From contig CAVSCK010000005.1 of assembly GCA_963726455.1 (NCBI GenBank), forward strand, positions 96,001 to 160,000: a stretch of DNA of 64,000 bases, read 5' to 3'. This stretch comes from an uncultured bacterium. Its GTDB lineage: Bacteria > Zixibacteria > MSB-5A5 > CAIYYT01. The notes beneath the pieces are model-generated. The model did not search any database and was not told the origin of the DNA. It worked only from the letters and a program-made list of their open reading frames with translations. The translations under genes and the position numbers were made by a program. Each line of letters begins with the position of its first letter. Position 1 is the stretch's first letter. Shown piece by piece: positions 25,979 to 60,902 of this stretch.

Positions 25979-26007
25979 AAGATACTGCCCTTACGGAGAA
26001 ATGTCAA
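25979..26007 (-). promoter_or_regulatory. Sigma70-type promoter
   Basis: TTGACA-17-TATCTT. Confidence 0.65.
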
Positions 26008-34923: not shown

Positions 34924-37287
34924 TTACTTAGACGGCGGGGGAGGACCTCCGCTAAATATGTAACTAATCAAAAATACAACGTCAGATATGTCGACCGTAC
35001 CACTGGCATCCGCATCCCCTGAGTACAGCGAGGGCGCCGGTCCATTGCCAAAGATGTAGGAGACAAGAAAGACCGCGTCGCTGATATCTATGTTATTGCT
35101 TTGATCGGCATCGCCGCGTAACCCGTGGATGTCTATCCCCCCCGACGATATGACCGGCAGATAGGCGCCGAAACTCGTCATGACGGCGGAAGTATATCCC
35201 GGATAGTCAGTTGTGTCGACGACATTGTGTCCCGGCAGCGGCGGCACCGCATCGTACTTAAGGTACATCCTAAATAGCACTCCGTCGCCCGCAGGCAATG
35301 GCGGCGAGCCACCGCCGTTATTGGCTATCATTCTCAGCACGAACTTGAAGCCCCCGGCCCAGGTTGCCGGCAGTGTGCGGCTCTCAAACGCCAAGCCGCG
35401 CGTTCCAACAAACGAAATCGAATCCAGCGATATGTCCATGTTCCCCCCGTAGGTTATCGGCAGAATCATGGACGTTATCGGCGCGTAGTTGTGCAGACGT
35501 ACGCTCACAACCAGAGGATCGGTACGGCTTCCCGAAAAGGGCTCCATGTCCAAAGTATCGGCATAGGCAATTATGTAAGCCGGCAGATTTGTCGTGTTCG
35601 TTCCTTGCGCGCCGCTGACCCGCAACTGGACATCGTAGCGGCCGGGATTTGCGTAAACGTGCGAAGGATTCTGAACTGTCGAGCTATCGCCATCGCCAAA
35701 ATACCATTTCCAGGTGTCTATCACTCCCGGGGCGGAACCGGAAAAATTCACGCTTAGCGGCGACAGACCAAAGCGCTGATCGCTGCCAATCTGGCCGGCG
35801 AAGATCTGCGAAACTGCCGTTGCCAAATTGATCCGGCCGCTTCCAAGCAGGCCGATATAGCCGGAATTCTGGGCGTCGATATTATCAGCCGTCGTGATGA
35901 TCAGAGTATCAAGCGCATTCTTCGATATGGATGGCACGCGCGAACGCAGCAAACCGGCCATGCCGGTCACGAACGGCGCCGCCATTGACGTACCCGACAA
36001 GTAGGTGTACGTGGGCGTGTTGTGATTCGAATAGGTGGAGTAGATGTTTGAACCGGGCGCTGCAACATCGACCCAGGAACCGTAGTTGGAGAATGACGAT
36101 TTGGCGCCGGACGAGGTCAGTGACGCCACTGCCAGCACATCCGTGCGGGAGCAAAGATAACTGGCTGATGAGTTGCCATCATTTCCGGCGGCAGAGACCA
36201 CAACCATTCCGTGGGCTATCGCATTCGTCACGGCAGCGCCGATGCCGCCGTCATTGGATGATCCCCAACTGCAGTTGACGGCCGTTACGCCTTTCTGAGT
36301 CGCATAGTAGAATGCCTGCGCTGCAAAATCCATCCGCACGTATCCACCTTCTTGACCACCGTTACTCTGAGACCAGCCAATTCGTAGCGGAACGATGCGG
36401 CAGCCGCGCTGCGACGGCGACCAGCCACCGGCTACACCCGCCACTCCGATACCGTTGTTGGTTATCGCCGCCATTATTCCCGCGGTGTGGGTTCCATGGC
36501 CGTTGAAATCCATTGGATCATTGTCCGGCTCGCTGCCATCTTCACCCGGCCAGGCCGAGACACCATTCACCCAATCCCAGCCACGAATATCATCTATGTA
36601 GAGATTGCCGTCATCGTCTTCCCCAGGATTGCCGTAGTACTCGGCCCAGTTGATCCAGATATTGCCGTTGACGTATGGCGAAGCGCCCGCGAGATCGGGA
36701 TGCTGCCAATTGACTCCGGTATCCATGGCGCCAACCAGGATCACGCTGTCTCCGGTCGCCGTGTTCCAGGCCTCCGGTGCATCAACATCCCGGTCATTCG
36801 ACTGGTTCAATCCCCACTGGATGCTGAACGACGGATCGTTTGGTACGGCGAAGACCGGATGTATGCTCACTTTCTCGACGTGCTCGATATCGGGAATTCC
36901 CCGAAAGTCGTTGAACGCCATTTCCAGTGAATCCTTGGCGTCGAATACGATTCGGTAATATCCCGACAGATCGAGTTCTTCAGCCGAACGCGGTTTCTCC
37001 GCGCCGACAAATAGCTTTTCAAAGGCCTTGGTACGATATTTTGAGAACAAGGCATCGACGGAGGTCAAGCCGGTATGTACGGCAGATTTCCCCGTGACAA
37101 AATGATTCCTGGCGACCTGCGGCTGAAAATTGACTACCAGCACTCCGTCGGCATACCACCAGTCATTCCCCGACCCAGCCGTCTGGGCGACAGCCGTCTC
37201 ATTCAGCAAGCCGCCCATCGTGAGGAGCGGTAGCAAAATGAAGAGGAAAAGGGCAATATAAGGGCGCGCCATTAAAGAAACGAACAT
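34924..37287 (-). CDS. S8 subtilase + PKD + cohesin-like domain + dockerin (tandem paralogue)
   Basis: AMDTG, GHGTHTAG, GTSMAAP; WYFGDG PKD; VSVRLHN...PLPAGDGVLFRMYL; Cys-free dockerin. Confidence 0.9.
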   Translation of the reverse strand: MFVSLMARPYIALFLFILLPLLTMGGLLNETAVAQTAGSGNDWWYADGVLVVNFQPQVARNHFVTGKSAVHTGLTSVDALFSKYRTKAFEKLFVGAEKPRSAEELDLSGYYRIVFDAKDSLEMAFNDFRGIPDIEHVEKVSIHPVFAVPNDPSFSIQWGLNQSNDRDVDAPEAWNTATGDSVILVGAMDTGVNWQHPDLAGASPYVNGNIWINWAEYYGNPGEDDDGNLYIDDIRGWDWVNGVSAWPGEDGSEPDNDPMDFNGHGTHTAGIMAAITNNGIGVAGVAGGWSPSQRGCRIVPLRIGWSQSNGGQEGGYVRMDFAAQAFYYATQKGVTAVNCSWGSSNDGGIGAAVTNAIAHGMVVVSAAGNDGNSSASYLCSRTDVLAVASLTSSGAKSSFSNYGSWVDVAAPGSNIYSTYSNHNTPTYTYLSGTSMAAPFVTGMAGLLRSRVPSISKNALDTLIITTADNIDAQNSGYIGLLGSGRINLATAVSQIFAGQIGSDQRFGLSPLSVNFSGSAPGVIDTWKWYFGDGDSSTVQNPSHVYANPGRYDVQLRVSGAQGTNTTNLPAYIIAYADTLDMEPFSGSRTDPLVVSVRLHNYAPITSMILPITYGGNMDISLDSISFVGTRGLAFESRTLPATWAGGFKFVLRMIANNGGGSPPLPAGDGVLFRMYLKYDAVPPLPGHNVVDTTDYPGYTSAVMTSFGAYLPVISSGGIDIHGLRGDADQSNNIDISDAVFLVSYIFGNGPAPSLYSGDADASGTVDISDVVFLISYIFSGGPPPPSK

Positions 37288-37439: not shown

Positions 37440-40400
37440 CTACTTGCAGCCCACTCCGCAGTGAGGAGCAGCGCCACCGGCGAAGATGTACTGAATCAAG
37501 TACACGGCGTCGGAAATGTCAACTGTGCAGTCACCGTTGGCATCGCCCTTACCGAAGGCATAGTTGCAGCTTCCAGGAGCCGCACCACCGGCGAAGATGT
37601 ACTGAATCAAGAACACCGCATCGGAAATGTCAACCGCGCCGTCGCTGTTGGCATCGCCGCAATCGACGCAACCTGTGGCCGCGCACCAAGCTGGTTTTAC
37701 AGTCGGCACGCCATGGGCGCACAGGAACTTCTTGCCTGCGTCCACAGCAGCCTGCAGGCCGGCTAGCGAACCGCCTGTACGCGGCTGGCCGGCGAGGATC
37801 ACGTAAATGTCGAAGGTCCCGGTGGCCTTCGGGGTGATCGTCGCTGACTTGGCAAACACAAGCATGGAGTTCAGGTCCTGAGCCGTACCGGCAAACGCCG
37901 TGTAACCGACTGAGGTCTGAATCTTCTTCCACATCGTGTCATTCACGTAACCCTGTACACGATACACGGTGGAATTGTTATCCTGTACGAAACCGGCTTC
38001 CAACGGGTTGTTGTCACCACGAATACCGGCAAGAGCGGCATAGCGGGTGGTGTTGGAGCCCCATCTGCCCTGCTGATAAACCATCTGCCGGAGTTCATCG
38101 GTACCGGCCTGGTTGTCAGAGGAGTCATCGGGAACGTCGAAGTCGCAAGCGTACGAGATCATCATGTTGTTGATCGTGGCCGCCGGATTCTTCGGACCGG
38201 CATAGAACGCGATCTTGGCAACCATGAAGTCGGCGCTATCGGGGGCCTTCGGAGCGTAGAAATCTACATCAAAGGCAACCGACGAGTCGCGGTTACAACC
38301 CACGCCCCACGAATGACGGAACGAGGTGTTGATCGAGTCGTACGACATTCCGGACGTGCAGAACAAACGGCCGATTCTGCCGGCAAACGAGCCGATGAAG
38401 CCCGTGCTGTCGGAGAAGATCGCCGTGCTCATGTGCAAGCTGTCAGTACCCATCAGGACTGATCCGTCAAACAGATAGTTGGTATCCGGATGATCGGAGG
38501 CGTAATGGAAACCGTAACCATGGGGCTTCTGGGCGGCCGCACGGCTGTTCTGGTCGGTAACCATTCTGACGGTAGAAGTACGAATGTCCAGATTCGCTTC
38601 CATGTTCCAGGTGTTGAAGTTGTACAACTCAACCGGGAAGTTGAGAGTCTTCGCCAGCCAAGACCATGTAATCGTGGCCTTGAAGACGCCTTCGGTCCCG
38701 GGACCGGTAGCGGTCACGTTTGTCGTCTGGAAGTTGGTGCAACCGGCTGGAACTGAGCTGGTGCCTCCAACGTCGAAGGTCAACCATGAACCGGCCGGAG
38801 TGTAGGCAACAGTTCTGACGTAGTCAGCGGAGATGTTACCTACGTTGGTCAGCTTGATCGGGAAGCTGGCCGTATGGTTCGGGCCGGCTGCCGGGGTCGT
38901 ATGGAACGGCCACACTCTTTCGACAGGATCAGCGGACAATACCGCATCGGTCGCAACCGTGAAGCACGGATACGACATGTTCATGATCGGGTTAATGACT
39001 GCTCCGCCCTGGGCGTAGATATAGTCGCCCGGCGACTTGTCGACCATGTACTGAATTCTGATGGAGTCAGACACATGTTCCGCAGTACTGGTGAATCCTT
39101 CGGCAAAGCAGGCGCCGGTAAGGCAGTTGTCCGACCGGGTGTTCGACAGGTTGACCGGGTTACCCCACAGGTCGCCGTTCAAGCTGGTGGAACCTTGCGC
39201 GAAGATTTCATAGTTGACATATCTGGTGGCGCCGGAGGAAGCTGCTGCACCGCAATCGGTGTAGGTCGAATCGGCGGTCAGATAGTCGGGGTTCAACAAG
39301 TATACGGCGTACAGACGTCTGTTGCCGCCCTGCAGACACTCGGACAAGCTGGGCTTGGAAATGTTGAGCTGATATCCCGGAGGACGGCAGCTATTGTTGG
39401 AACCGTAATCGGAGGCATCCTTTACCAGGGACTGGCAACCGGAATTGCAGGAGCTCCAATGGAACAGCTTTGCCGGATAGATCAAATAAGTATGACCGGC
39501 GGTGTCATTCCACATGGTGGTATAGAGGACGTGCAGACATTCATTGTTGTCGTACAGCGGCGACATTTCGTTCGCGCGCATGCACATCACGGAACCGTCG
39601 CTGGCGACGATACTGTCTTCCGCGTTCGTGAAATGCTTCACGGTAGTGCGCGGTCCCCAGGTGGCGCCGGCGTCGTTTGATTCGCGGTAGACAATGTCAT
39701 CATTGTCGCCCCAGTTGCGGGCGAACTTGTTGGCCATCCAGCTTCTGGGATAGAAATAGACTGCCGCAACTTTATTCGAAGCGGCGACCGGGCTGGCAAC
39801 AATTTCGTACGACGAACTGGCAACGGAATCGAGGAAAGTACCGCAAGTGGCTGACGGAGCAACTACGTCGTCCGTCGACTTGTAGTACACCAACGAATAG
39901 CGACCGGTGGTGTCGCGACCCGGTGAGGTCGTGCCGCCGGCATATTCGCAGGTAAGGATATGGGCAATCGGTCTGCCGGAAACAGTATTGAGGTCACTAG
40001 CCACGGACGGCCAGATGTAACCCTCTTCGATCGTTCCCGGAATACCAATCTGGATGTTTTGGCAGTTCGGACGTGCCGGCAGCGAAGCCGGGGCGACCGG
40101 GTAATCGGCCAAACCGAAGATAAGACCGGCGCAGGAAGTCTGCATACCGGCCTGGACCGTCGAGCGGCCAAAGGTGGCATCCGGCGAAGTCCAGTGGTAA
40201 GCCATGATCGCAAAACCATTGATCGGATCGGTGGCGATCGAAGCATAACCGGAGGTCAGCGGACCAATGTCGGTCGGGAGCGGTGGATTTGACGGTGGAA
40301 CGTTGGCAACATAACGGATGTTGCGCGAACCGCCGGTCCAGTAATCGACTTCAGCATACATAAACACGTTATGAATGTTGCCGCTGCAACCAACAGCAAT

Positions 40401-40688
40401 CTGTCTCTGATTTCTGCCCGGGTTGCTTTGATGGTCGATCGTGCTGTAGCCGACTTGTTTGGTGAACATGTAATATCCCAGGGAAGACGGAGCAGTTGAC
40501 TGCGGCTTGCTGGCAACATTGCTGCCCGGATTGTCAATCAACTGATCGCCATTCCAATGCGTAGCCGAAAGTCCGACTTCCGCCGAGCGCGAGGCCTTAT
40601 CGTACGCCGCATTGGCGCCGAAGGCCGCTCCGCACAGGGATAACACGAAAATAGACAGAACAAATAGTACCGAGAGAGTTCTCGTCAT
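37440..40688 (-). CDS. Large secreted Cys-rich protein of unknown function with C-terminal dockerin
   Basis: Signal peptide; Asp-box-like ESNDAGATWG; Ig-like segment; terminal dockerin; AAAGGAG RBS. Confidence 0.85.
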   Translation of the reverse strand: MTRTLSVLFVLSIFVLSLCGAAFGANAAYDKASRSAEVGLSATHWNGDQLIDNPGSNVASKPQSTAPSSLGYYMFTKQVGYSTIDHQSNPGRNQRQIAVGCSGNIHNVFMYAEVDYWTGGSRNIRYVANVPPSNPPLPTDIGPLTSGYASIATDPINGFAIMAYHWTSPDATFGRSTVQAGMQTSCAGLIFGLADYPVAPASLPARPNCQNIQIGIPGTIEEGYIWPSVASDLNTVSGRPIAHILTCEYAGGTTSPGRDTTGRYSLVYYKSTDDVVAPSATCGTFLDSVASSSYEIVASPVAASNKVAAVYFYPRSWMANKFARNWGDNDDIVYRESNDAGATWGPRTTVKHFTNAEDSIVASDGSVMCMRANEMSPLYDNNECLHVLYTTMWNDTAGHTYLIYPAKLFHWSSCNSGCQSLVKDASDYGSNNSCRPPGYQLNISKPSLSECLQGGNRRLYAVYLLNPDYLTADSTYTDCGAAASSGATRYVNYEIFAQGSTSLNGDLWGNPVNLSNTRSDNCLTGACFAEGFTSTAEHVSDSIRIQYMVDKSPGDYIYAQGGAVINPIMNMSYPCFTVATDAVLSADPVERVWPFHTTPAAGPNHTASFPIKLTNVGNISADYVRTVAYTPAGSWLTFDVGGTSSVPAGCTNFQTTNVTATGPGTEGVFKATITWSWLAKTLNFPVELYNFNTWNMEANLDIRTSTVRMVTDQNSRAAAQKPHGYGFHYASDHPDTNYLFDGSVLMGTDSLHMSTAIFSDSTGFIGSFAGRIGRLFCTSGMSYDSINTSFRHSWGVGCNRDSSVAFDVDFYAPKAPDSADFMVAKIAFYAGPKNPAATINNMMISYACDFDVPDDSSDNQAGTDELRQMVYQQGRWGSNTTRYAALAGIRGDNNPLEAGFVQDNNSTVYRVQGYVNDTMWKKIQTSVGYTAFAGTAQDLNSMLVFAKSATITPKATGTFDIYVILAGQPRTGGSLAGLQAAVDAGKKFLCAHGVPTVKPAWCAATGCVDCGDANSDGAVDISDAVFLIQYIFAGGAAPGSCNYAFGKGDANGDCTVDISDAVYLIQYIFAGGAAPHCGVGCK

Positions 40689-41303: not shown

Positions 41304-41337
41304 AGACGACCGCTGTCGGCATTGACAACGGTCGTCT
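41304..41337 (-). terminator. Terminator after the giant repeat gene
   Basis: agacgaccgctgtc-ggcatt-gacaacggtcgtct, followed by TGTTT on the minus strand. Confidence 0.7.
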
Positions 41338-41362: not shown

Positions 41363-44300
41363 TCACTGAGGCGGCGGCACCGGTCCATTGTTAAAGATAT
41401 AATTAATCAGATAAACACAGTCGGATATATCAATCGTGCCATCGCCATTGGCGTCGCCGTTACGAAGCGTTGCCGGCGCCGGATTGGAAGCGAAGATGTA
41501 TCCGATCAGGTACACAACGTCGGAAATGTCAATTGTGGCATCGTTGTTAGCGTCACCTCGAACGGCCTTGACCACCTGAATCCGAATGCGTGTCGTGTCC
41601 GCAAGCTGGCCATCAGAAGCCACGAATCGCAACTGGTAGCTCGAATCGGCCTGCAGGTCGGTCGGATCGAAGCGGAAGCTGCCGCGCCCGTTGGCGGAAT
41701 CGACAAATACCGCATTGTACGGCACGTACGGGGTACCGCTCACCGACAGCGTCGGTGTCGTCCCATCCGGGTCAGAAGAGCGCAACCACAACTGCATCAC
41801 CTCATTGGTGACATTGACCGTCTTTAGTGAATCGAGTTTGACGATCACCGGTTTCTGATTAGCCGCATTGATTACCGTAATTGTTACGACTTCGCTGTCC
41901 ACCTGGTACTGGGCGGTGTTCTCGGTTACCTTGAACGTCGTCGTATACACACCTGCAGCAGCGAAATTCGGCGCGTACAGGAACCGCGATTTCGCCGTTC
42001 CCGCCGGCTGTCCCGCCTGCGTGGTGAAAGTCGCCCCCGGAGGCAGACCGGTAGCGGATAACGTGACACCACCACCGTCGGGGTCAGACCCCGCGACCAT
42101 CACATCCAGCGTACCGCCTTCAAGCACTGACAAAGCACCAATCGGATCCAGCACCGGCGGGGCAAACTGGTTGGTCACGTTGACCGTGAGCACATAGTTC
42201 CGGTAACGCGTCGTATCCCGATCGTCCTTCATGAAGAACAGCAGTTTGTACTGGCCGTTCTGGCTGAAGCTCGGCTGGAAGTTGAAGTTGGCCGTGTCAT
42301 TACGATTGTCGACCAGTGTCATGTTCGCCGGCATTGCCGAAAGCGTCGTATCCGTGCCGGTGACCGTGAAGCGATTACATCTGAAGTACGGGTGCGTTCC
42401 GTCCGGATCAGGCAAGGTTGCCATGATTCGGAATTGTAACTGGCCGCCTTCGAGAATTGTCTGCTGACAGGTACCCGATCCCGGAGTGAGACAGATCGTG
42501 TAAGGATCGTACCCAATATCCGGCGGCAGTAGTATCGAGTCATTCACAACAATCGGCACCGCGAACGAATCAACCACACCGCTGGTGTCACTGTCAGTGG
42601 CATAGAATGTGACGGAGTAGGTTCCCATCTGCTGCTGTTGCGTTGTCCAGGTAAAGGCACCACCACCCGTTCCCGAATCGATGAAGGCCGCGTTGAACGG
42701 CAAGGTGGATGTCGTCAATACCGGTTTCGTGCCGTCCGCGTCGGTTGCCCGTACCTTGATCGTCATCTTTTGCTGTTCTTTTACCGTCACGCTGGTCGGC
42801 GTCACTGTCATGACCGGTATCTGGTTGCCGGCCTCTATCACTTTGATGGCGACAATTCCGGTATCTCGTTTGACGCCGTCGGTCGCGAAGAAGCGGACGT
42901 TGTAATTACCCGACTGCGTGAAATCCGGTTTGAAGCGGAACAACCCGCCTCCGTTCAGTGAATCCACGAAGATCGCGTGAACTGGTATCGTTGTCGAATC
43001 GACTTTGAGCGTGTCAATCGTACCATCCGGATCAGTCACGCTGATACGGAAGTACACTGAATCACCTTCCCTTACGATCTGCGTGTCCGCAGGAACGGTG
43101 AGAACCGGCGGTTGCGGTATGTTCACGACCTGAATCATTACATTTTCGTAATCGGTTTTATTGCCGTCGGAAGCAATGAACTTCACTGAATACAATCCCG
43201 ACTGCGAGAAGGTCGGTGTGAAAGTAAACAACGCATGGCCGTTGGCGGAATCCACCATCACCGAATTAACCGGCATGTTCTGCGCCTGGAAGAACGGTAT
43301 CGTGCCGTCCGGATCGGTCGCCGACAGGTGAATTCGCAAGGTATCGCCTTCATTCACACTCTTGGGCCCGATATACGCCAGCACCGGCGGCTGATTGGTA
43401 CGCAGCACAGTGATCACCGCGGTGTCGGCGTCACTCATCGAAGGTATGCCGTTATCGAAGCAGAGCACGATGAAAGTATGCGCGCCAGTATCGGCCACAG
43501 TCGGCTTCCAACGCAGGGATGCGCGGCCGCCGGTCGAGTCCGTAAACACCGAACCGGTCGGTTTAACCGGAGCGATCAGACTCAGATGCGGCCCGTTGGG
43601 ATCAGTCGAGTCAGTCGCTACCACGCGAATATTCAGCGAGTCTCCCGGCAGTACCGTGTAGTCCTGAATGTGCACGATGGTCGGCGGCTGGTTGACGTCA
43701 AAGGTGGTAATTTGAACTCTCTCGAAGCTGCTTGCACCCTGTGCATCAGTTGCATAGAAGGTCGCGGTGTCGATGCCAGCGGAGTAATAGTCGGGAACAT
43801 AGGTAAACGAACCCGATCCGTTGCCGGAATCCACGAACGTATAGAAGTTCTTCATGGTGACGGCGCTGACCAGCAACGACGGAATTCCGCCGTCATCGGT
43901 CGCGTGTATCCGGAAGGCCAATTGGCCGCCCTCATACACGGACTTGGGACCGATGGAATCGAGAACCGGCGGCATATTCGAAGTATTGATTACCGTAATC
44001 GGAACGACTTCGCTGTCCGCCAGAATACCGTCAGAGGCAATGAAAGTCACATTGTAGATGCCAGACTGCAACATATCGGGCACGAAGACGAATATGCCCG
44101 TACCGTTGCCATGATCGCCGAAGGACGCATGCAACGGCAGGTTAATCGCCGTCAATACTGGAATGGTGCTGTCCGGATCGGTTGCCGTGACGTTGAAGGT
44201 CAGGTTGCTGCCGGCATTAACCGACTGAGGACCGATCGCCGCCAGTATCGGTGCACGATCAGCATTGGAAATCGTGATCACAACCAGTTCGCTGTCCGCC

Positions 44301-47300
44301 AGAGTGCCGTCAGAGGCAATAAACGTGACGTTGTATACTCCGGCTTGAGCGTAAGTCGGCGTGAAGGTAAACGTCCCTCTGCCGTTCGCGCTGTCGAAAT
44401 AAGTCGCATTGAGAGGCAGGTTGATCGCAGTCAATGCTGGGATCGTGCCGTCTGGGTCGGTGGCCGACGTGTTGAACGTCATCACCGCGCCCTCGAAACC
44501 GGAATGCGGACCGATCGCCGCCAGAACCGGCGGCTGATTGCCTGCATCCGTCACCGTGATCGCCACGATTTCGCTGTCGGCCAGGGTGCCGTCAGAGGCG
44601 ATAAAGGTAACGTTATAAACACCGGCCTGCGTGTAATTCGGCGTCCAGGTGAATCTCCCTCGGCCATTCAGACTGTCTACGTATGCCGCACCGGTAGGCA
44701 GACCCACGGCCGTCAGAGCGGGGATCGTGCCATCCGGGTCAGTCGCCGAAGTCGCGAAGGACAGGACTGTGCCCTCGGCCGTAGTTTTCGGGCCAATTGC
44801 GGTCAACACCGGCGGCTGATTAACATCTGTCACCGTGATCACCACAACTTCGCTATCTGCTAATGTTCCATCGGAAGCGATGAAAGTCACATTGTACAAA
44901 CCGGCCTGCGACAACGTCGGCGTCCAATTGAACGTCGCCGTACCGTTCGCATGATCGGTATACGTAGCACCAGTCGGCAGTCCGACAGCAGTCATCGCGG
45001 GATTCGTGCCGTTTGGATCGGAGGCCGAAGCTACAAAGTTGAGGTTCACTGCCTCAGCCACTGACTTCGCGCCGATTGCTGCCAGCACAGGCGGCTGATT
45101 CACAAACACTACTGTGATTGCGACAACTTCGCTGTCAGCCAGGGCGCCATCGGAAGCAATAAATGTCACATTGTACAACCCTGCCTGCGCAAAAGTCGGC
45201 GTCCAGTTGAAGGTGCCGGTTCCGTTAAGGTTATTGGTGTAGGTTGCGCCGGTCGGCAAATTGACCGCCGTCATCGCAGGTATCGTCGCATTAGGATCGG
45301 TAGCTGAAGTATTGAAGTTCAGATTGGCGCCGGCATTCACTGATTTCGGGCCAATCGTCGCCAACACCGGCGGCATATTCACGCCTACCACCGTGATCGC
45401 GACGACTTCGCTATCCGCTAGTGTGCCGTCGGAAGCGATAAAGGTCACATTGTAGACACCCGCCTGGGTAAAGCCCGGCGTCCAGGTGAATCTGCCTCTA
45501 CCGTTCAAGCTATCAACATAGGCCGCACCGGTAGGCAATCCCACGGCCGTCAAGGATGGGATTGCACCGTCCGGATCAGTCGCCGACGTCGCAAAGGCAA
45601 GCAACGCACCCTCGTTCGCCGTCTTCGGGCCGATCGTCGCGAGTACCGGCGGCTGATTCACGTTGTTCACCGTGATCGCTACGACTTCGCTGTCGGCGAG
45701 TGTGCCGTCTGACGCAATGAATGTCACATTGTAGACACCCGATTGCGAGAAGGTCGGCGTCCAGTTGAAAGTAGCGGTGCCATTGAGATTGTCTGTATAT
45801 GTCGCACCAGTCGGAAGACCCAGCGCCGTCATTGCCGGTATCGTTCCGTCGGGATCACTTGCCGAAGTTGCGAAGTTAAGGATTGACACCTTCGTTCACG
45901 GACTTCGCGCCAATCGCTGCCAGCACCGGCGCGCGGTTGACGTTGTTCACCGTAATGGCTACCACTTCACTGTCTGCCAGTGTTCCATCCGAAGCGATGA
46001 AGGTCACGTTGTAGACACCGGATTCCGAGAAAGTCGGTGTCCAGTTGAAGGTGGCGGTACCGTTGAGATTATCAGTATAGGTCGCGCCAAGCGGCAGACC
46101 GACTGCGGACATCGCCGGTATCGTTGCGTCAGGATCACTTGCAGAAGTAGCGAAGTTCAGATTGACGCCTTCATTCACTGACTTGGCACCGATAGCGGCC
46201 AGCACCGGCGGGCGGTTCACGTTATTCACCGTGATCGCCACGACCTCGCTGTCGGCCATCGTGCCGTCGGAAGCAATGAATGTCACATTGTGCACTCCAG
46301 ACTGAGTGAAGTCCGGAGTCCAGTTGAATGTCGCGGTACCATTCAAGTGATCGGTATAGGTCGCGCCTGTCGGCAGGCCAACCGCAGTCATTGTCGGTGT
46401 CGTTCCGTTCGGATCTGATGCCGAAGTACCAAAGCTGAGGTTGATACCTTCGTTCACCGATTTAGCACCGATCGCTGCCAGAACCGGCGGCACATTCACG
46501 AACACCACCGTGATCGCGACCACTTCGCTGTCAGCTAGCAAGCCATCCGAAGCGATGAAGGTCACGTTGTATGACCCTGCCTGTGCAAAGGTCGGAGTCC
46601 AATTGAATGTTCCGGTTCCGTTGAGATTATTAGTATATGTCGCACCGGTCGGAAGATTAACAGCGGTCATGGTCGGAATCGTGCTGTTAGGATCGCTCGC
46701 CGAAGTACCGAAGTTCAGGTTGGCGCCTGCGTTCACCGATTTTGGGCCAATCGTCGCCAAGACCGGCGGCACGTTTACGCCCACCACTGTGATTGCGACA
46801 ACTTCGCTATCGGCGAGAGTACCATCGGAAGCAATGAAGGTCACGTTGTAAACGCCCGCCTGTGTGTAGCCCGGCGTCCAGGAGAATCTCCCTCTGCCGT
46901 TCAAGCTATCGACATAGGTCGCGCCCGTAGGAAGGCCTACGGCTGTAAGGGCAGGGATCGTGGCATCTGGATCGGTCGCGGAAGTATTGAAACCGAGGTT
47001 TACACCTTCATTAGCAGTCTTCGGACCAATCGTTGCCAGCACCGGCGGCAGATTCACGTTGTTCACGGTGATCGCGACAACTTCACTGTCGGCCAGCGTT
47101 CCATCCGACGAAATGAATGTTACGTTGTAGACACCCGACTGTGCGAAGGTCGGTGTCCAGTTGAACGTACCGGTACCGTTAAGATTATCCGTGTACGTTG
47201 CACCGGTCGGCACACCCAGAGCGGTCATCGCCGGAATCGTGCCATCCGGATCACTTGCCGACGTGCCGAAGTTCAGATTAACATTCTCGTTTACACTCTT

Positions 47301-50300
47301 CGCGCCAATCGCGCCAGCACGGGCGCACGATTGACGTTGTTTACCGTGATTGCCACCACTTCGCTATCGGCAAGCGTGCCGTCAGAAGCGATGAACGTAA
47401 CGTTGTAAACACCCGACTGGGTAAAGTCCGGCGTAAAGTTGAATGTGCCGGTACCGTTGAGATGGTCAGTATAAGTCGCGCCAAGCGGCAACCCCAGAGC
47501 TGTAAGAGCCGGTATCGCACCGTCGGGATCGCTCGCTGACGTTCCAAAATTCAAATTGATTCCTTCATTTACGCTCTTCGCCCCGATCGCAGCCAGCACC
47601 GGCGGTCGGTTCACGTTATTCACCGTGATCGCCACCACTTCACTATCAGCCAACAGGCCGTCGGAGGCGATGAACGTCACATTGTAAACACCAGACTGGG
47701 TATAATCCGGAGTCCAGGCGAATCTGCCCCGGCCGTTCAGACTATCCACATAGGTTGCACCAAGCGGCAAGCCAACTGCCGTCAGCGCTGGGATCGTTGC
47801 GTTTGGATCTGTTGCCGAAGTATTGAATGCCAGGATGACACCTTCATTGACCGACTTCGCGCCGATCGCTGCCAACACCGGTGGCATGTTAACACCTACT
47901 ACCGTTATCGCGACGACCTCGCTGTCGGCAAGCGTGCCGTCCGAAGCGATGAAGGTCACATTGTAGACACCTGCCTGGGAGAAGGTCGGTGTCCAGGTAA
48001 AACCTCCCGCGCCGTTCAAACTGTCCCTATAGGCCGCGCCGGTTGGCAATCCAACCGCAGTCAACACCGGGACCGTTCCATCCGGATCTGATGCCGGAGT
48101 TCTGAAGCTCAGATTTACGCCTTCATTAGCAGTCTTGGGCCCAATTGTCGCCAGCACCGGCGGACGATTGACGTTGTTCACCGTAATCGCCACAACTTCG
48201 CTGTCTGCCAACGTTCCGTCGGAAGCGATGAAGGTTACATTGTAGACACCCGACTGTGTATAGTCCGGCATCCAGGTGAATCTTCCTTTGCCGTTCAGAC
48301 TGTCCACGTAAACCGCGCCCAGAGGCAGACCCACTGCCGTCATGGTCGGGAACGTGCCGTCCGGATCGGTCGACGACGTATTGAAAGCAAGACTGACGTT
48401 CTCATTAACACTCTTCGCGCCGATTACTGCCAACACCGGCGCGCGATCAACATTATTCACCGTGATCGCGACGACTTCGCTGTCTGCCAACAATCCATCG
48501 GAAGCAACGAAGGTCACATTGTAGACTCCGGCATCCGTGTAGCCGGGCGTCCAACTGAAGGAAGCCGTACCGTTGACATGATCTGTGTAGGTCGCACCCA
48601 CCGGCAAGCCGATTGCAACCAGCGATGGAATCGCGCCGTCAGGATCTGACGCAGTCACGTTGAAGCTCAGATTGACATTTTCATTAACGGACTTAGGCCC
48701 AATCGTTGCCAACACCGGTGGTTGATTCACGTTATTCACCGTGATCGCCACCACTTCGCTGTCGGCCAAGGTTCCATCTGACGCGATGAAGGTCACGCTG
48801 TGGATTCCAGATTGACTGAAACTCGGCGTCCAATTGAATGTCGCCGTTCCGTTGAGATGATCTGTATATGTCGCGCCGGTCGGTAATCCGACGGCTGTCA
48901 TCGCGGGATTCGTGGCGTTGGGATCGGTCGCCGATGTGACGAAATTCAGATTGGCATTTTCATTGACCGTCTTCGGTCCAATCGCCGCCAGCACCGGTGG
49001 CACATTCACGAAGTTTACCGTGATCGCTACCACTTCACTGTCGGCCAGCAGGCCGTCGGAAGCGATGAAAGGTTACATTGTACACACCCGCTTGCGCGTA
49101 TGTCGGCGTCCAGGTAAATCTTCCTCTACCGTTCAGACTATCCACATAGACCGCACCGGTCGGCAGACCAACCGCCGTCAGTGACGGGGTCGTTGCATTC
49201 GGGTCGGTCGCCGAGGTGTTGAAAGCCAGATTCGAGCCGGTATTCACCGACTTCGGACCGATCGCTGCCAACACCGGCGGCACATTTACGCCTACCACCG
49301 TGACAACTACAACTTCACTGTCAGCTAACGTGCCATCCGAAGCGATAAAGGTCACATTGTAGACACCCGCCTGGGTAAAGCCCGGGGTCCAGGTGAATCT
49401 TCCCGTACCGTTCAAGCTGTCAACATAGGCCGCACCGGGGGCAGACCTAGGCCGTAAAGTCGGGATCGTGCCGTCCGGATCGGCTGCCGAGGTACTGAAG
49501 CCGAGTAACTTACGCCTTCATTGGCAGTCTTCGGTCCGATTGTTGCGAGCACCGGCGGACGGTTGACGTTGTTCACCGTGATCGCCACGACCTCGCTGTC
49601 AGCAAGCGTTCCATCCGACGCGATGAAGGTGACGTTGTATGCGCCCGACTGGGCAAAAGTCGGTGTCCAGTTGAAAGTGGCTGTACCATTAAGATTATCT
49701 GTGTACGTAGCGCCCGTCGGCAAACCAACCGCGGTCATCGCGGGACTCGTTCCGTCCGGATCTGAGGACGAAGTGCCGAAGTTGAGATTGACGCCTTCGT
49801 TCACCGTCTTCGCTCCGATCGCGGCAAGTACCGGCGCACGATTAACGTTGTTCACCGTTATCGCCACGACCTCACTATCCGCCAGAGTGCCATCAGACGC
49901 AATAAATGTCACATTGTAAACACCCGACTGGGTATAGTCCGGCGTCCAGGTGAATCTGCCTCTGCCGTTCAAGCTGTCTACGTAAACCGCGCCCAGAGGC
50001 AAGCCCACAGCCGTCATGGCCGGGATTGTGCCGTCAGGATCAGTCGCCGAAGTATTGAAGCCGAGACTAACATTCTCGTTCACGGCCTTGGCTCCGATTG
50101 CCGCCAACACCGGCGCGCGATCAACGTTGTTCACTGTGATCGCTACGACTTCGCTGTCAGCCAGCGATCCGTCGGAAGAAATGAAGGTGACGTTATAGAC
50201 GCCCGACTGAGTGAAGCTGGGATTCCAGTTGAAGATAGCGGTACCGTTAGTTTGATCGGTGTAAGTCGCCCCGCTTGGCAAGCCAACAGCGATCATAAAC

Positions 50301-53300
50301 GGAGTCGTGCCGTTAGGATCAGACGCCGAAGTCGTGAAGTTAAGATTGGCGCCTTCGTTCACGCTCTTCGGACCAATCGCCGCCAATACCGGCGCCGCAT
50401 TCACGTACACCACTGTGACTGCAACCACCTCGCTGTCAGCCAAGGTGCCGTCGGAGGCGATAAAGGTAACGTTGAAGACACCGGCCTGAGTATAGCCCGG
50501 CGTCCAACTGAATCTTCCTCTGCCGTTCAGACTGTCTACGAAGGCCGCGCCAAGGGGCAGACCAACCGCCCTCAGTGATGGCGTAGTTGCGTTCGGATCA
50601 GTCGCCGAGATGTTGAAGCCGAGGTTCACGCCCTCATTTACGCTCTTCGGCCCGATCGTCGCCAATACCGGAGGTACATTCACGCCCACCACGGTAATCG
50701 CGACGACCTCGCTGTCCGCCAGCGTTCCATCAGACGCGATGAAAGTCACATTATAGACACCTGCCTGAGTATAGCCCGGCGTCCAATTAAATGTCGCAGT
50801 TCCATTCAAGTGATCAGTGTATGTCGAGCCGGTCGGGAGACCGACAGCCGTCAACACAGGGATAGTTGCATCCGGATCGCTTGCTGAAGTATTGAAGTTG
50901 AGATTGGCACCTTCACTCACTGACTTCGGGCCAATCGCTGCCAGTACCGGTGGTTGATTCACGTTGTTAACCGTGATAGCAACCACTTCGCTATCAGCGA
51001 GAGTCCCGTCGGAAGCTATAAAAGTCACGTTGTAGACACCCGACTGCGAAAGCGTCGGTGTCCACGTAAATCTTCCTCTACCGTTTAGACTGTCGACATA
51101 AGTCGCGCCGGTCGGCAAACCGACTGCTGTCAGAGCCGGGATCGTGGCGTCGGGATCAGTAGCCGAGGTGTTGAAGGCGAGATTGACACCTTCGTTCACT
51201 GACTTCGGGCCAATCAGTGCCAGCACCGGTGGCTGGTTCACGTTGTTAACCGTGATCGCCACAACTTCGCTATCTGCGAGCGTTCCATCGGACGCGATGA
51301 AGGTCACATTGTAAACACCCGACTGTGAGAAGGTCGGTGTCCAGGTGAATCTGCCTCTACCATTAAGACTGTCGACATAGGTCGCGCCGGTCGGCAAACC
51401 AACTGCTGTCAATGCCGGGATCGTGGCGTCGGGATCGGAAGCCGAAGTGTTGAAGGCAAGATTAACGCCTTCGTTCACTGACTTCGGTCCAATCAGTGCC
51501 AGCACCGGTGGCTGGTTCACGTTGTTAACCGTGATCGCCACAACTTCGCTATCAGCGAGTGTGCCGTCAGAGGCAATGAACATCACATTGTAAACACCCG
51601 ACTGTGAAAGCGACGGAGTCCAGGTAAATCTACCTCTGCCATTGAGACTATCAACGTAAGTGGCGCCTACTGGCAAACCGACTGCTGTCAGAACCGGGAT
51701 CGTGGCGTCAGGATCAGTAGCCGAAGTATTGAAGGCGAGATTGACACCTTCGTTTACCGACTTCGGACCAATTGCTGCCAGAACCGGTGGCTGATTCACA
51801 TTGGTGACCGTGATCGCCACAACTTCACTGTCGGCGAGAGTGCCATCGGAGGCGATGAAGGTCACATTGTAAACACCTGACTGCGAAAGTGTCGGTGTCC
51901 AGCTGAAATGACCTCTGCCATTGAGACTGTCGACATAAGTCGCACCAGTCGGCATACCCACTGCTGTCAGAGCCGGGATCGTGGCGTCGGGATCGGTTGC
52001 CGAAGTATTGAAGGCGAGATTGACACCTTCGTTGACCGACTTCGGACCGATTGCTGCCAGCACTGGCGGTTGATTCACGTTGTTTACCGTGATCGCCACA
52101 ACTTCGCTATCGGCGAGAGTGCCGTCGGAAGCGATAAATGTCACATTGTAGACACCTGACTGCGAAAGTGTCGGTGTCCAGCTGAAATGACCTCTGCCAT
52201 TGAGACTGTCGACATAAGTCGCACCAGTCGGCAAACCCACTGCTGTCAGAGCCGGGATCGTGGCGTCGGGATCGGTTGCCGAAGTATTGAAGGCGAGATT
52301 GACACCTTCGTTGACCGACTTCGGACCGATTGCTGCCAGCACTGGCGGTTGATTCACGTTGTTTACCGTGATCGCCACAACTTCGCTATCGGCGAGAGTG
52401 CCGTCGGAAGCGATAAATGTCACATTGTAGACACCTGACTGCGAAAGTGTCGGTGTCCAGCTGAAATGACCTCTGCCATTGAGACTGTCGACGTAAGTCG
52501 CACCAGTCGGCAGACCGACTGCTGTCAGAACCGGGATCGTGGCGTCGGGATCAGTTGCCGAAGTATTGAAGGCGAGATTGACACCTTCGTTGACCGACTT
52601 CGGGCCGATTGCTGCCAGCACCGGTGGTTGATTCACGTTGTTCACCGTGATCGCCACAACTTCGCTATCGGCGAGCGTGCCATCTGACGCGATGAAGGTC
52701 ACATTGTAAACACCCGACTGCGAGACCGTCGGTGTCCAGGTGAATCTGCCTCTGCCATTGAGACTGTCTACGTAAGTTGCACCAGTCGGCAGACCGACTG
52801 CAGTCAGGACCGGGATGGTGGCGTCGGGATCAGTAGCCGAAGTGTTGAAGGCGAGATTGACACCTTCGTTCACCGACTTCGGACCGATTGCTGCCAGCAC
52901 CGGCGGCTGATTTACGTTGTTTACCGTGATCGCAACCACTTCGCTATCAGCGAGAGTCCCGTCAGACGCAATGAAGGTCACGTTGTAGACACCCGACTGT
53001 GAGAAGGTCGGTGTCCAGGTGAATCTGCCTCTGCCATTGAGACTGTCTACGTAAGTTGCACCAGTCGGCAAACCAACTGCAGACAGGACCGGGATGGTGG
53101 CATCAGGATCGGAAGCCGAAGTGTTGAAGGCGAGATTGACACCTTCGTTGACCGACTTCGGACCGATTGCTGCCAGCACTGGCGGTTGATTCACGTTGTT
53201 TACCGTGATCGCAACCACTTCGCTATCGGCGAGAGTGCCGTCAGACGCAATGAAGGTCACGTTGTAGACACCCGACTGTGAGAAGGTCGGTGTCCAGGTG

Positions 53301-55359
53301 AATCTGCCTCTGCCATTGAGACTGTCTACGTAAGTTGCACCGAGTCGGCAAACCAACTGCAGACAGGACCGGGATGGTGGCATCAGGATCGGAAGCCGAA
53401 GTGTTGAAGGCGAGATTGACACCTTCGTTGACCGACTTCGGACCGATCGCTGCGAGCACTGGCGGTTGATTCACGTTGTTTACCGTGATCGCCACAACTT
53501 CGCTATCTGCGAGAGTCCCGTCGGACGCGATGAAGGTCACATTGTAAACACCCGACTGCGAGAAGGTCGGTGTCCAGGTAAATCTGCCTCTGCCATTGAG
53601 ACTGTCGACATATGTCGCACCAGTCGGCAAACCAACTGCAGACAGGACCGGGATGGTGGCATCAGGATCGGAAGCCGAAGTGTTGAAGGCGAGATTAACA
53701 CCTTCGTTGACTGACTTCGGACCGATCGCTGCCAGAACCGGTGGCTGATTCACATTGTTAACCGTGATCGCAACCACTTCGCTGTCAGCGAGAGTGCCGT
53801 CGGAAGCAATGAAAGTCACATTGTAGACACCCGATTGTGATAGCGACGGAGTCCAGCTGAAATCTGCCTCGACCATTTAAGCTGTCGACGTAGGTTGCAC
53901 CAGTCGGTAAACCAACTGCTGTCAGAACCGGGATCGTGGCATCGGGATCTGTAGCCGAGGTATTGAAGGCAAGATTAACACCTTCGTTTACCGATTTCGG
54001 GCCGATTGCTGCCAGAACCGGTGGCTGATTCACATTGGTGACCGTGATCGCCACAACTTCACTGTCGGCGAGAGTGCCATCGGAGGCGATGAAGGTCACA
54101 TTGTAAACACCCGACTGTGAGAGTGTCGGTGTCCAACTGAATCTGCCTCGACCATTCAAGCTGTCCACATAAGTTGCACCTACTGGCAAACCGACTGCTG
54201 TCAGAACCGGGATAGTGGCATCGGGATCAGTAGCCGAAGTGTTGAAGGCAAGATTAACGCCTTCGTTGACTGACTTCGGACCGATCGCTGCCAACACCGG
54301 TGGTTGATTCACGTTGTTAACCGTGATAGCAACCACTTCGCTATCGGCGAGCGTGCCATCTGACGCAATAATGGTCACATTGTAAACACCTGACTGAGTA
54401 TAATTTGGGTTGAAATTGAACGAGCCCTTGCCGTTCAAACTGTCCGTAAAGGTCGCATTGGCTGGAATGTTAACCGCACTTAAGGTTAGAGCGCTGCCTT
54501 CCGGGTCGGTTGCCGACACACCAAAATTCAGATTGGCGCCTTCATTAACCGATTTGGCTCCGATCGCGGCCAGTACCGGCGCTGCGTTGCAGTAACCGAA
54601 ACCGCTCGTTCCAAGCGTGTGATGTGACTGTATTTCCGAAAGAGTCAGAGCGCGGTTATAAAGCGCCAGTTCATCGAGAATGCCGTCATAATAGGACGGG
54701 GTGCCGGTATTGATCCAACCCACGTTCATTGGCACAGTCGAGGCAAATCCAGTGGTATACGTCTGCGCGCCGAAACCTTCCTGTGCGCCGTCAACATAGA
54801 TGCGCGTCGTATCGGAATTCCGCGTGACCACCACATGATGCCACAGTCCGTCGCTCACAACTGTCGTGTTCCAGACATCCAACGAAACGTCGCTCTGCAT
54901 CTGGAAATGCACCTGCCCCGCGTGTGGCGCGGTGCAGTCGATACCGAGTGACCAACTCATCGTCGTGCCGTCAACACGTCCCACCATGACCTCCGGGCCT
55001 GTGCAGGCATTTGGCTTGCGCATCCAGAGTTCAATGGAAAAATTATCTGCCGCTCCCCAGTCAAAGGTGTTGTCGTCCGCGATGTTAACGCTATCCGAAC
55101 TCGTGCTGCCGTTGAACAGCAGCGCCCCGGCAACTCTGCCAGTAGTAGCGGTCGGACAGGTTGTACATGTGGCATCATTCGTGCCTACGGTGTCACGATA
55201 CGGTTGAGCCGTTTCGTTAAACTTCCAATAATGGCTAATGCCCGTCGGGCATTGCGCCCAGGCAGATGCCTGCGTAAGCAAGAGGGCAGCGAAGACGATC
55301 AGCAGGACCATCTTCCTGTCTAAAGCTGCGAACCTCCTGATATCTCTAGGCAACCTCAC
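41363..55359 (-). CDS. Giant (~4,660 aa) secreted adhesin-like protein: LamG/ConA-like domain + 46 cadherin-like Ig repeats + dockerin; broken by about 6 frameshift sites
   Basis: Seven overlapping or adjacent minus-strand ORFs join into one continuous repeat register; GTG start at 55359 after GGAGG, then a signal peptide; LamG motifs FSIELW, WHHVVVTR, IYVDG, GILDELALYNRAL; terminal dockerin. Confidence 0.88.
41570..54588 (-). repeat. Tandem array of ~279-bp (93-aa) coding repeats, 46 units
   Basis: Unit N.PPVL..IG.KSVNEG..L.F..SA.DPD.T.P...GLP.GA.Y.D..NG.G.F.WTP...Q.GVYNVTFIASDG.LADSEVVAITV; units at 51900-52460 nearly identical at the DNA level. Confidence 0.95.
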
Positions 55360-55552
55360 CTTAACCTCCGTATTTATGGAAACAGAATCATTATTCGAAT
55401 ACATGGTGCACCGGAATTTGTCTCTCCGCGAAATCAAGTTGCTCATATGTGTTCCGGTCTTTCTCCTGACTACTCCTATGAATGGCCTGACAACTGAATC
55501 TCCGGCCACGGAATGCGGTGACGGTTACTATTGCCGTCACCGCATACAAGAA

Positions 55553-60853: not shown

Positions 60854-60879
60854 TATGGGGAGATTTTACTCTCCCCATA
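60854..60879 (-). terminator. Stem-loop after the 60903 gene (terminator or stabiliser)
   Basis: tatggggaga-ttttac-tctccccata; weak U-tract. Confidence 0.55.
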
Positions 60880-60902
60880 CCCGGTAAAAGATACCTGAGA
60901 AA

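Follow-up and report, generated by a model that had tools for sequence, protein, structure and literature searches.

A giant cadherin-like stalk protein ending in a dockerin, probably anchored on T9SS-sorted cohesin carriers in Zixibacteria

From seven minus-strand reading-frame pieces (13,997 nt, net +2 nt) of the 64-kb window, i.e., the whole stretch of DNA analysed here, we rebuilt a 4,664-amino-acid (aa) protein that begins with a Sec signal peptide and a LamG-type tip, continues with 46 cadherin-like repeats and ends in a dockerin (Table 1). Our best explanation, to which we give a probability of about 0.6 as a whole, is that the gene is intact and broken only in the assembly, and that its product of roughly 0.47 MDa is a fibrillar surface protein of a probable Zixibacterium, namely a dockerin-anchored stalk on cohesin carriers with T9SS C-terminal sorting domains (CTDs); we infer the docking, the export route and the ligand. 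Sec would take the giant protein across the inner membrane, while the T9SS would export the carriers and attach them to the outer surface. The stalk dockerin would then plug into an unoccupied cohesin, a socket of the kind that the proteases use, with cohesin 2 of carrier 55553 as the best candidate. The repeats, stiffened by one Ca2+ per junction, would form a rod of ~170-200 nm and keep the tip well away from the cell envelope; the stalk may attach the cell, along with the proteases docked on it, to other cells or to particles of organic matter. The original prediction, a dockerin-plugged giant adhesin sharing a cohesin platform with proteases, is partly supported; prey, which it also named as a target, was rejected, as we found no evidence pointing to prey.

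The gene starts at GTG 55359, with GGAGG 6 nt 5' of the start codon, and stops at TGA 41363-41365. Signal peptide cleavage, predicted by eye, falls after A-W-A and leaves Gln as the mature N-terminus. The tip matches PF13385 LamG_3 with 80 bits (cutoff 27.6), and its sequence matches in the PDB are weak and mixed. In the stalk, 43 repeat starts were located by pattern at a spacing of mostly 278-282 nt, and three further, diverged repeats start at 42826, 42532 and 41860. Repeats 2-13 share 82-98% DNA identity, repeats 14-36 display no clear higher-order period (identity 0.72-0.78 at all lags), and repeats 39-46 are diverged. The dockerin, 64 aa without insertions and with both Ca loops intact, follows immediately after repeat 46; it scores 35.9 bits against PF00404 Dockerin_1 (cutoff 22.9) and 21.3 bits, below the cutoff of 29, against the NCBIfam GC-type dockerin anchor NF041540, and its top PDB sequence match is a type I dockerin (E 1.7e-6). 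No TSP3 match was found in the seven pieces, in which dockerins number one, and Rfam gave 0 matches. Pfam, the pattern search and the reassembly thus confirm the domain order that had been read from the seven fragments.

Table 1. Features of the giant gene, its carriers and the dockerin clients (positions in the window)
Feature	Position	Strand	Basis or remark
Seven pieces of giant gene	53785-55509, 53241-53876, 49412-53422, 49035-49415, 47291-49033, 45876-47228, 41363-45889	-	
Signal peptide, aa 1-35	55255..55359	-	by eye
LamG/ConA-like tip domain, aa 36-257, 6 Cys	54589..55254	-	PF13385
Stalk, 46 cadherin-like repeats of ~93 aa	41567..54588	-	pattern search and model
C-terminal dockerin, two symmetrical Ca-loop/helix halves, then stop	41363..41560	-	PF00404
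Frame break 1, repeat 3	53859..53862	-	one extra base
Frame break 2, repeat 5	53342..53343	-	one extra base
Frame break 3, repeat 19	49437..49517	-	several indels in ~80 nt, net -1
Frame break 4, repeat 20	49067..49072	-	one extra base
Frame break 5, repeat 27	47312..47316	-	one base short
Frame break 6, repeat 32	45880..45882	-	one extra base
Cohesin carrier A (55553), 759 aa	55553..57832	-	
Carrier A, signal peptide and cohesin 1 (variable)	57239-57745 (cohesin 1)	-	
Carrier A, cohesin 2, most conserved	56453-56905	-	after an Ig domain
Carrier A, internal dockerin	56273-56452	-	
Carrier A, cohesin-like 3	55862-56245	-	
Carrier A, T9SS type A CTD	55556-55840	-	
Cohesin carrier B (57957), ~816 aa	57957..60422	-	cohesin, 2 Ig, cohesin, internal dockerin-like, beta domain, T9SS CTD
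CTD protein C (60903), ~906 aa	60903..63623	-	Ig domains, internal dockerin-like, T9SS CTD
Putative diverged cohesin of 60903	61755-62399	-	
13-bp hairpin 3' of 60903	60852..60881	-	z -5.1
12-bp hairpin without U-tract between 55553 and giant gene	55514..55544	-	z -3.8
Hairpin 3' of giant gene, probable terminator	41305..41336	-	z -4.2
Small protein (31313), one domain and T9SS CTD, candidate single-site anchor	31313..32353	-	TIGR04183 42.3 bits
Dockerin client	37440..40688	-	Pfam
Dockerin client, S8 protease with PKD	34924..37287	-	Pfam
Dockerin client, S8 protease with PKD	32491..34890	-	Pfam
Dockerin client, S8 + FG-GAP + ASPIC	22783..26007	-	Pfam
Dockerin client, M6 metallopeptidase with TSP3 repeats	20031..22424	-	Pfam
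Two related dockerin clients (17136-19592, 14999-16963)	14999..19592	-	Pfam
Dockerin client	11706..12695	+	Pfam

The three genes upstream, 55553, 57957 and 60903, all end in T9SS sorting domains, with TIGR04183 above its cutoff in each (40.3 bits in 57957). Pfam detects cohesins in 55553, and by fold matching this protein carries genuine cohesins and a T9SS CTD: for both aa 26-198 and aa 311-460, the top 20 matches consist of cohesins throughout (Z 12.0-16.6), and the PorU CTD fold is matched by aa 667-759 (Z 10.5). Foldseek with the whole 759-aa model returned generic Ig arrays and one cohesin-containing entry at rank 49. The cohesins of 57957 score 24.3 and 27.9 bits against PF00963 (cutoff 24.1). 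Thus, the earlier description of all three genes as scaffoldin-like holds for 55553 and 57957, whereas Pfam detected no cohesin in 60903, for which Atlas scores of 0.92-0.93 to clusters with PF00963 in 13-18% of members provide a lead only, and the orthologue described below gave a cohesin match of E 0.027, not a firm one. Slices of 60903, 31313, 34924 and 32491 likewise yielded no Pfam cohesin, and nine candidate cohesin-like domains (in 57957, 60903, 34924, 32491 and 31313) reached profile-to-sequence probabilities of at most 13.5% against the 55553 cohesin profiles, which is uninformative.

As had been proposed, the stalk dockerin belongs to the same class as those of the proteases. In one comparison it is 56-60% identical to the eight client dockerins of the window and 30-31% to the three internal dockerins. 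In another, it is 58-62% identical to all eight, as against a median of 43% for 61 dockerins that come from other genomes and belong to relatives bearing the repeat (one of the 61 reaches 55%); the profile for this comparison was built from the window's own dockerins, and the set includes no close relative of the source organism.

The linkage between stalk and cohesin genes recurs in a second genome, of Ca. Zixiibacteriota (L002), in which the four-gene order is kept: orthologues of 60903, 57957 and 55553 (35, 33 and 38%, respectively) are accompanied by an intact, dockerin-ended stalk of 3,337 aa that starts ~25 nt after the 55553 orthologue, and a one-domain CTD gene comes after the stalk. 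The 60903 orthologue is followed by a U-tract terminator, and the L002 carriers and stalk look co-transcribed. In the window, the claim that no clear terminator lies upstream of the stalk stands insofar as a scan of the stretch from 55553 to the giant gene returned none, albeit the promoter/terminator scan performed at chance level; against it, a strong hairpin follows the 55553 stop and another follows 60903, which is probably transcribed separately from the downstream genes. The adjacency of the stalk to 55553 is known from two genomes only. Of the 78 loci from a genome scan, a single one had a true 55553 orthologue, the search having been flooded by CTD patterns.

A long tandem Ig-like stalk on a diderm surface is also found in LapA and SiiE (T1SS) and in SprB (T9SS); LapA and SiiE have no Sec signal peptide and carry a C-terminal T1SS signal or RTX repeats. 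The giant protein differs from these three in having a Sec signal peptide, no RTX/T1SS signal and no CTD of its own. We found no Pfam or NCBIfam match to T1SS/RTX signals in its first or last piece, and none to Por_Secre_tail, CHU_C or TIGR04183 in its C-terminal piece (41366-45889). A T1SS/RTX adhesin and a direct T9SS substrate were both rejected on these grounds. Genes for the T9SS machinery are absent from the 64-kb window.

These features raise the question of how dockerin clients lacking a CTD cross the outer membrane. One may speculate that the dockerin is itself the export ticket, and that CTD-less clients bind a cohesin-CTD carrier in the periplasm and cross the T9SS together with it. 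Nine window proteins have a C-terminal dockerin and no CTD match, and four have a CTD; the apparent co-transcription of carriers and stalk in L002 would also suit joint export. The tails of the relatives point the same way. Among 95 stalk relatives (mostly Zixibacteria where a taxon name is given), 48 end in a dockerin, 18 in another tail and eight in a T9SS CTD, 16 are incomplete and five are otherwise, counts that are biased as one search query included the dockerin. The CTD stands directly at the end of eight short relatives (8-13 repeats) and of none of the 45 long stalks (at least 24 repeats), 17 of which end in the different tail. Nevertheless, we found no experiment or publication showing co-export by the T9SS, and type II secretion followed by docking outside would give the same anatomy. 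We regard as rather unlikely the idea that in Zixibacteria the dockerin serves as a second-hand T9SS signal for CTD-less cargo, up to a 0.5-MDa rod, which is exported with cohesin-CTD carriers and stays docked. If true, such cells would bear a surface into which proteases and long fibrils plug, the fibrils having exchangeable tips; the docking code would be specific to each genome, and one clade would use a new, uncharacterised anchor module in place of the dockerin. Export of this kind agrees with our best explanation except for the site of docking.

Since the same repeat ends in a dockerin, another tail or a T9SS CTD, the C-terminal slot behaves as an anchor slot. The 185-aa tail that replaces the dockerin in one clade matched only unlabelled clusters in the Atlas (0.86-0.87).

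The repeats are cadherin-like, as originally predicted, in both their fold and their conserved junction Asn/Asp residues. The repeat model has a pLDDT of 96.9, and the top fold match of a repeat pair is the CDHL region of SraP (Z 13.0, rmsd 5.0, 174 aligned), followed mostly by cadherins (Z 11-13); titin Ig and GH107 Ig domains also rank high in Foldseek. The junction residues N/D1 (37/40), D28 (40/40), D/N30 (39/40) and D77 (39/40) have a spacing resembling the single Ca site of SraP, and the acidic residues of the full three-ion cadherin set are only partly kept. The length of about 200 nm given earlier was overstated and is better taken as the upper end for 93-aa domains. In the binding region of SraP of S. 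aureus, likewise, a ConA-type lectin tip is projected by cadherin-like modules stiffened by a single Ca site in the stem; SraP has two CDHL modules in a serine-rich wall-anchored protein (PMC4047093), whereas the giant protein has 46 modules on a dockerin.

It is also conceivable, though we consider it improbable to a similar degree as joint export, that the function lies in the stalk, as a structural fibril, spacer or cell-cell tether formed by side-to-side cadherin-like pairing, for which a tip is optional. The LamG domain is not the defining tip of the family, being present in one of the 95 relatives (P0040); at least 23, including the syntenic L002 protein, have no tip, the repeats starting straight after the signal peptide. 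Moreover, tandem CDHL modules of SraP are reported to form dimers in solution (PMC4047093), and cohesin/dockerin proteins have been proposed as adhesins in ANME-SRB consortia (PMC10553843). On the other hand, N-terminal heads of >150 aa occur in 33 of the 95 relatives, are of at least four kinds and differ between nearest neighbours in a quick tree (the window protein and P0124; P0040 and P0004), which fits ligand-specific adhesins.

Less likely still, the stalk dockerin docks elsewhere, the neighbouring cohesins being taken by the carriers' internal dockerins and the socket being, e.g., of the 31313 or 60903 type. Each carrier does bear an internal dockerin able to occupy a cohesin, and the block of internal dockerin, beta domain and CTD recurs in CTD proteins that are otherwise unrelated, from Ignavibacteria, Cloacimonadota and other groups (L001, L004, L016, L033, L052). 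Two of three further putative pairs of a stalk and a 55553 orthologue (P0003/P0293 and P0023/P0284) have dockerin-less stalks, so that linkage need not mean docking, and the one-domain CTD gene 3' of the L002 stalk would offer another socket. However, there are three cohesin-type domains in 55553 and two in 57957, with one internal dockerin in each protein, which leaves sockets over. In addition, cohesin 2 of 55553 keeps the invariant Q352, D354, Y379 and E436, on strands that presumably form the face binding the dockerin. Complex prediction with 55553 aa 27-660, the stalk dockerin and four Ca scored 0.00 in two runs whose controls did not fold, and counts neither for nor against docking.

With its two-Ca-loop dockerin and the cohesin-fold partners that would be anchored at the surface, the proposed dockerin-anchored stalk is, together with its carriers, a variant of non-cellulosomal cohesin-dockerin surface display, with precedents in CttA/ScaE and Ca. 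Stygibacter. Cohesins and dockerins are known from complexes that digest plant fibre, but a canonical cellulosome, with dockerin-bearing cellulases and a many-cohesin scaffoldin with CBM3, was rejected, as within the window the eight other clients are S8/M6 proteases or unassigned, and the carriers have 2-3 cohesins and gave no CBM match. CttA of Ruminococcus flavefaciens, whose gene belongs to the scaffoldin cluster, is described as a putative adhesin without catalytic activity that is attached to the cell through its C-terminal dockerin, bound to the anchored cohesin ScaE (PMC5301203); the giant gene, too, lies in a scaffoldin cluster and ends in a dockerin, in both the window and L002. CttA is believed to combine two CBMs with an X-dockerin that contains insertions, and its partner ScaE is anchored by sortase (LPXTG) on a Gram-positive cell (PMC5301203), in contrast to the 46-domain stalk, plain symmetrical dockerin and T9SS-CTD carriers found here. 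An X-dockerin with a sortase-anchored partner is not what we see: the dockerin lacks insertions, and the neighbours end in T9SS CTDs. In the complex of Ca. Stygibacter (Cloacimonadota), deduced from genomes only, an S8 peptidase and other enzymes likewise bear dockerins, the cohesin scaffoldin has a CTD, and one dockerin client is non-catalytic and halomucin-like. That single scaffoldin has 3,755 aa, with many cohesins and CBMs (PMC8542988), whereas in the window the carriers are several and small, with 2-3 cohesins plus an internal dockerin, and the giant partner is the dockerin client. For the planctosome of Nemodlikiaceae, too, cohesin-dockerin display of peptidases has been hypothesised, again on a diderm cell and with small adaptor proteins; its proposed anchor is a lamin-tail protein, and the available part of the description mentions neither a T9SS CTD nor a cadherin-like stalk (PMC6461901). 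Dockerin-type giant proteins of Omnitrophota share giant size and dockerins and are proposed for attachment, but have at least 30,000 aa, many dockerin and TSP3 repeats and transmembrane anchors; the words 'cadherin' and 'zixi' occur 0 times in the available text (bioRxiv 10.1101/2023.11.21.568195). The concept is less novel than the original prediction suggested, the CttA adhesin and the CTD scaffoldin with dockerin proteases of Ca. Stygibacter being already in print. Our literature searches found no description of cohesin-dockerin display with T9SS-sorted carriers in Zixibacteria. Our findings would widen the range of such display, which includes enzymes and small adhesins, to fibrillar proteins of giant size on a diderm cell, and would offer new cohesin-dockerin pairs, a load-bearing one being of interest for mechanostable complexes (PMC7456326), as well as the uncharacterised alternative tail.

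The six frame breaks all fall within repeats, the tip and repeats 33-46 being free of them. They are probably assembly errors, as (i) no coding piece contains a nonsense codon, (ii) the repeats are under purifying selection (pN/pS 0.031/0.415 over 45 pairs for repeats 2-13 and 0.166/0.680 over 153 pairs for repeats 14-36), (iii) htrA in the window (near 28100) is frameshifted as well, its trypsin domain being divided into profile positions 1-56 and 57-144, and (iv) in 45 relatives, whose repeats number 24-61, the stalk is encoded by a single ORF; the single gene postulated from the fragments is supported by the same points. On the other hand, most of the breaks coincide with base runs just 2-3 long, a length frequent in any DNA. 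That the indels are real and the gene a recent pseudogene in this strain is very unlikely: six broken repeats in ~10 kb do contrast with one evident frameshift (htrA) among the other genes inspected, the last fragment is also in the deposited protein set (P0123), albeit from the same assembly, and very recent loss would be compatible with the selection signal, but points (i), (ii) and (iv) speak against it, as does the confinement of the breaks to multi-copy repeats, where polishing fails. Genes of this giant-stalk type hide as fragments in repeat-rich assemblies.

The original prediction read 41363-55359 as signal peptide, LamG domain, 46 cadherin-like repeats and dockerin, and this anatomy of the stalk protein proved right (see the table). 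At ~4.5 nm for a cadherin domain of 110 aa, 46 domains of 93 aa would form a stalk of about 170-200 nm when fully extended. For the predicted structure of a repeat pair (pLDDT 96.9), SraP's CDHL modules (Z 13.0) and many cadherins were the best matches, and Ig domains of titin and GH107 ranked first in Foldseek. Four junction positions, conserved in 37-40 of the 40 in-frame repeats, are spaced as in the single Ca site that stiffens the SraP stem (PMC4047093).

Features of the stalk protein, its relatives and the window
Feature	Position	Strand	Remarks
Signal peptide	aa 1-35 of stalk protein	-	by eye
LamG_3 domain	after signal peptide	-	80 bits
46 repeats, each ~93 aa		-	43 by pattern, 3 more besides
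Dockerin	C-terminal in stalk protein	-	35.9 bits
Alternative tail: FN3-like domain, duplicated ~90-aa module	last 290-380 aa		P0001-P0004, P0012, P0016, P0040, P0227, others
Strong hairpins directly after three stops	55514-55544, 60852-60881, 41305-41336	-	z -3.8 to -5.1
NiFe hydrogenase cluster: hypF and further genes for maturation; Fe-S and NAD-binding subunits	1-9502	-
NapC/NirT-type multiheme cytochrome, ChrB C-terminal protein, MFS transporter	9971-14475
Sigma-70 family factor	26143-26997	-	amid dockerin clients
htrA/degP-type protease	27085-28609	-	frameshift splits trypsin domain
GH35/GH42-like protein	28953-31169	-	no evident signal peptide; amid dockerin clients

Three scaffoldin-like genes had been placed upstream; of these, 55553 and 57957 (genes are named by their lower coordinate) have cohesins, but 60903 has no Pfam cohesin and an Atlas lead only. 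57957 carries two Pfam cohesins. The predicted structure of 55553 (mean pLDDT 77.8) contains two cohesin folds, whose top 20 structure matches were all cohesins (Z 12.0-16.6), and a tail matching the CTDs of PorU (Z 10.5) and PorZ (Z 9.1). A further domain, the third of cohesin type, scored 23.4 bits as a Pfam cohesin, slightly below the cutoff, and cohesin 2 is the most conserved of the three (54% vs 36% and 43%). These three proteins and the small protein 31313 passed the T9SS type A cutoff, and each of the three has an internal dockerin of a class different from the stalk's. A block of internal dockerin, cohesin-like domain and CTD also stands at the end of many unrelated proteins with a CTD, from Ignavibacteria, Cloacimonadota and Bacteroidota (loci L001, L004, L016, L033, L052 and others).

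Besides the stalk protein, eight window proteins (clients) end in a dockerin, including four S8 or M6 proteases. The stalk dockerin is 56-60% identical to those of the clients and 30-31% to the internal dockerins. When relatives in other genomes were included, all eight clients (58-62%) lay nearer to it than 60 of the 61 dockerins from there (median 43%, best 58%), in a comparison whose profile was built from the window's dockerins and whose other-genome sample includes no close relative; this proximity suggests a genome-specific docking code common to stalk and enzymes. Most client dockerins in 11706-34890 have cysteines both in their second Ca loop and at their C-terminus, which suggests that disulfides stabilise them; the stalk dockerin lacks this pattern. 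In the PKD-bearing S8 proteases, the domain just before the dockerin (35122-35571 and 32701-33156, minus strand) appears cohesin-like by eye and has no Pfam match; if these domains are real cohesins, clients could chain onto each other. The clients at 14999-19592 and 37440-40688 (-) have large N-terminal regions without a Pfam match.

We favor, at a probability of roughly 0.6, a joint reading in which the stalk protein would be exported by Sec, the cohesin carriers would be anchored via the T9SS, the stalk dockerin would dock on a carrier cohesin, and a Ca-stiffened repeat rod would present an exchangeable tip. That clients hitch-hike through the T9SS is somewhat unlikely and partly compatible with this reading; a structural or self-pairing fibril is an equally tentative alternative, and a socket for the dockerin elsewhere is improbable. 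Nothing in the analysis speaks for a tether to prey, which the original prediction had named as one possibility.

Among the 78 loci of the genome scan, L002 (Ca. Zixiibacteriota, JANQPI010000020.1) alone has the full gene set, with orthologues of 60903, 57957 and 55553 and a stalk gene in the window order; its stalk is intact, with 34 repeats and a dockerin and without a tip. As its 60903 orthologue is set off by a terminator and ~1.4 kb, and the other three genes are packed tightly with a single terminator at the end, the conserved unit looks like 57957-55553-stalk. Seven of the 11 orthologues of 57957 putatively have a 55553 orthologue on the same contig. Three stalks are putatively on a contig with a 55553 orthologue, two of these three ending in the alternative tail; unless that tail serves likewise, this speaks against the view that docking explains the linkage. 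The claim of no clear terminator upstream of the stalk gene stands insofar as the hairpin after 55553 has no U-tract, but that hairpin is strong. Intergenic stem-loops set transcript ratios in the cip-cel operon (PMC4423207), and our guess by analogy is that the U-less hairpin may tune them here. Both genomes encode, close to the stalk or behind it, small proteins made up of a single domain and a CTD (window 31313-32353, minus; L002 22042-22863, plus), which are candidate single-site anchors.

The best 120 of 283 matches from one protein search and 150 matches listed by a second together comprise 255 proteins, not counting the fragment from the window itself; 95 with at least 8 repeats at a mean of at least 75 bits were kept, and 160 set aside. 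Among the matches listed, the 95 end in a dockerin (48), the alternative tail (18), a T9SS CTD (8), a truncation (16) or otherwise (5), and the 45 with at least 24 repeats in a dockerin (24), the alternative tail (17), a truncation (4) or a CTD (0), counts possibly biased by the dockerin in the query that gave 283 matches. Tips vary: among the 95 listed, LamG occurs in one (P0040), a head of some kind exceeding 150 aa in 33, and repeats begin at residue 15-40 in 26, 23 being judged complete from signal peptides. A quick tree (44 rows) built on the last six repeats united the 17 alternative-tail stalks in one group (SH-aLRT 100, which the repeat register may inflate) and placed P0124, which has 15 repeats and a head containing IPT/TIG, as sister of the window stalk. 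The alternative tail, which replaces the dockerin in one clade and has no Pfam family and Atlas leads all <0.9, is possibly a new anchor. Named sources among the best 43 matches were Zixibacteria (five) and Verrucomicrobiae (one), and the window's organism is accordingly a probable Zixibacterium. We regard the dockerin-bearing stalk as a real conserved feature.

The giant gene, with a GTG start at 55359 and a GGAGG site upstream, comprises seven overlapping reading-frame pieces over 13,997 nt, equal to a 4,664-codon frame plus 2 nt. The frame switches within repeats 3, 5, 19 (which has several indels), 20, 27 and 32, and nowhere in the tip or repeats 33-46. The gene is very probably intact in the organism; a pseudogene by very recent inactivation is highly doubtful, for although the base runs at the breaks are no longer than 2-3 nt, which weakens the case for sequencing error, the coding stretches of the pieces contain no nonsense codon, pN/pS is low in the in-frame repeats (0.031/0.415 for repeats 2-13, 45 pairs; 0.166/0.680 for repeats 14-36, 153 pairs), and the htrA gene, split mid-domain, indicates assembly indels elsewhere.

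LapA, SiiE and SprB are comparison systems for the stalk protein. CttA is a dockerin-anchored putative adhesin which, like the stalk protein, has a C-terminal dockerin and is encoded in a scaffoldin cluster (PMC5301203). In Ca. Stygibacter, peptidases and a non-catalytic protein bear dockerins, and a scaffoldin bears a CTD (PMC8542988); further precedents are the planctosome (PMC6461901), dockerin giants of Omnitrophota (10.1101/2023.11.21.568195) and cohesin/dockerin proteins of ANME-SRB (PMC10553843). The main text of a survey of cellulosome-displaying bacteria does not contain 'zixi' (PMC11557425), and its supplements could list such genomes. A search that hardly covered the Zixiibacteriota spelling and did not extend to subscription journals found no paper joining zixibacteria with dockerin or with type IX secretion, and none of the broader matches listed describes a dockerin-anchored stalk in its title or the opening of its abstract.

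Twelve secreted window proteins, among them the stalk piece 41366-43981, contain the motif D-(S/T)-(A/I/L/V/M/T), the Bacteroidota O-glycosylation site, 73 times where 42.6 would be expected; 12 cytoplasmic ones contain it 9 times (expected 9.4). Stalks differ in this respect: some are strongly enriched in the motif, and others, among them most with the alternative tail, are depleted, although counts within repeats are not independent of one another.
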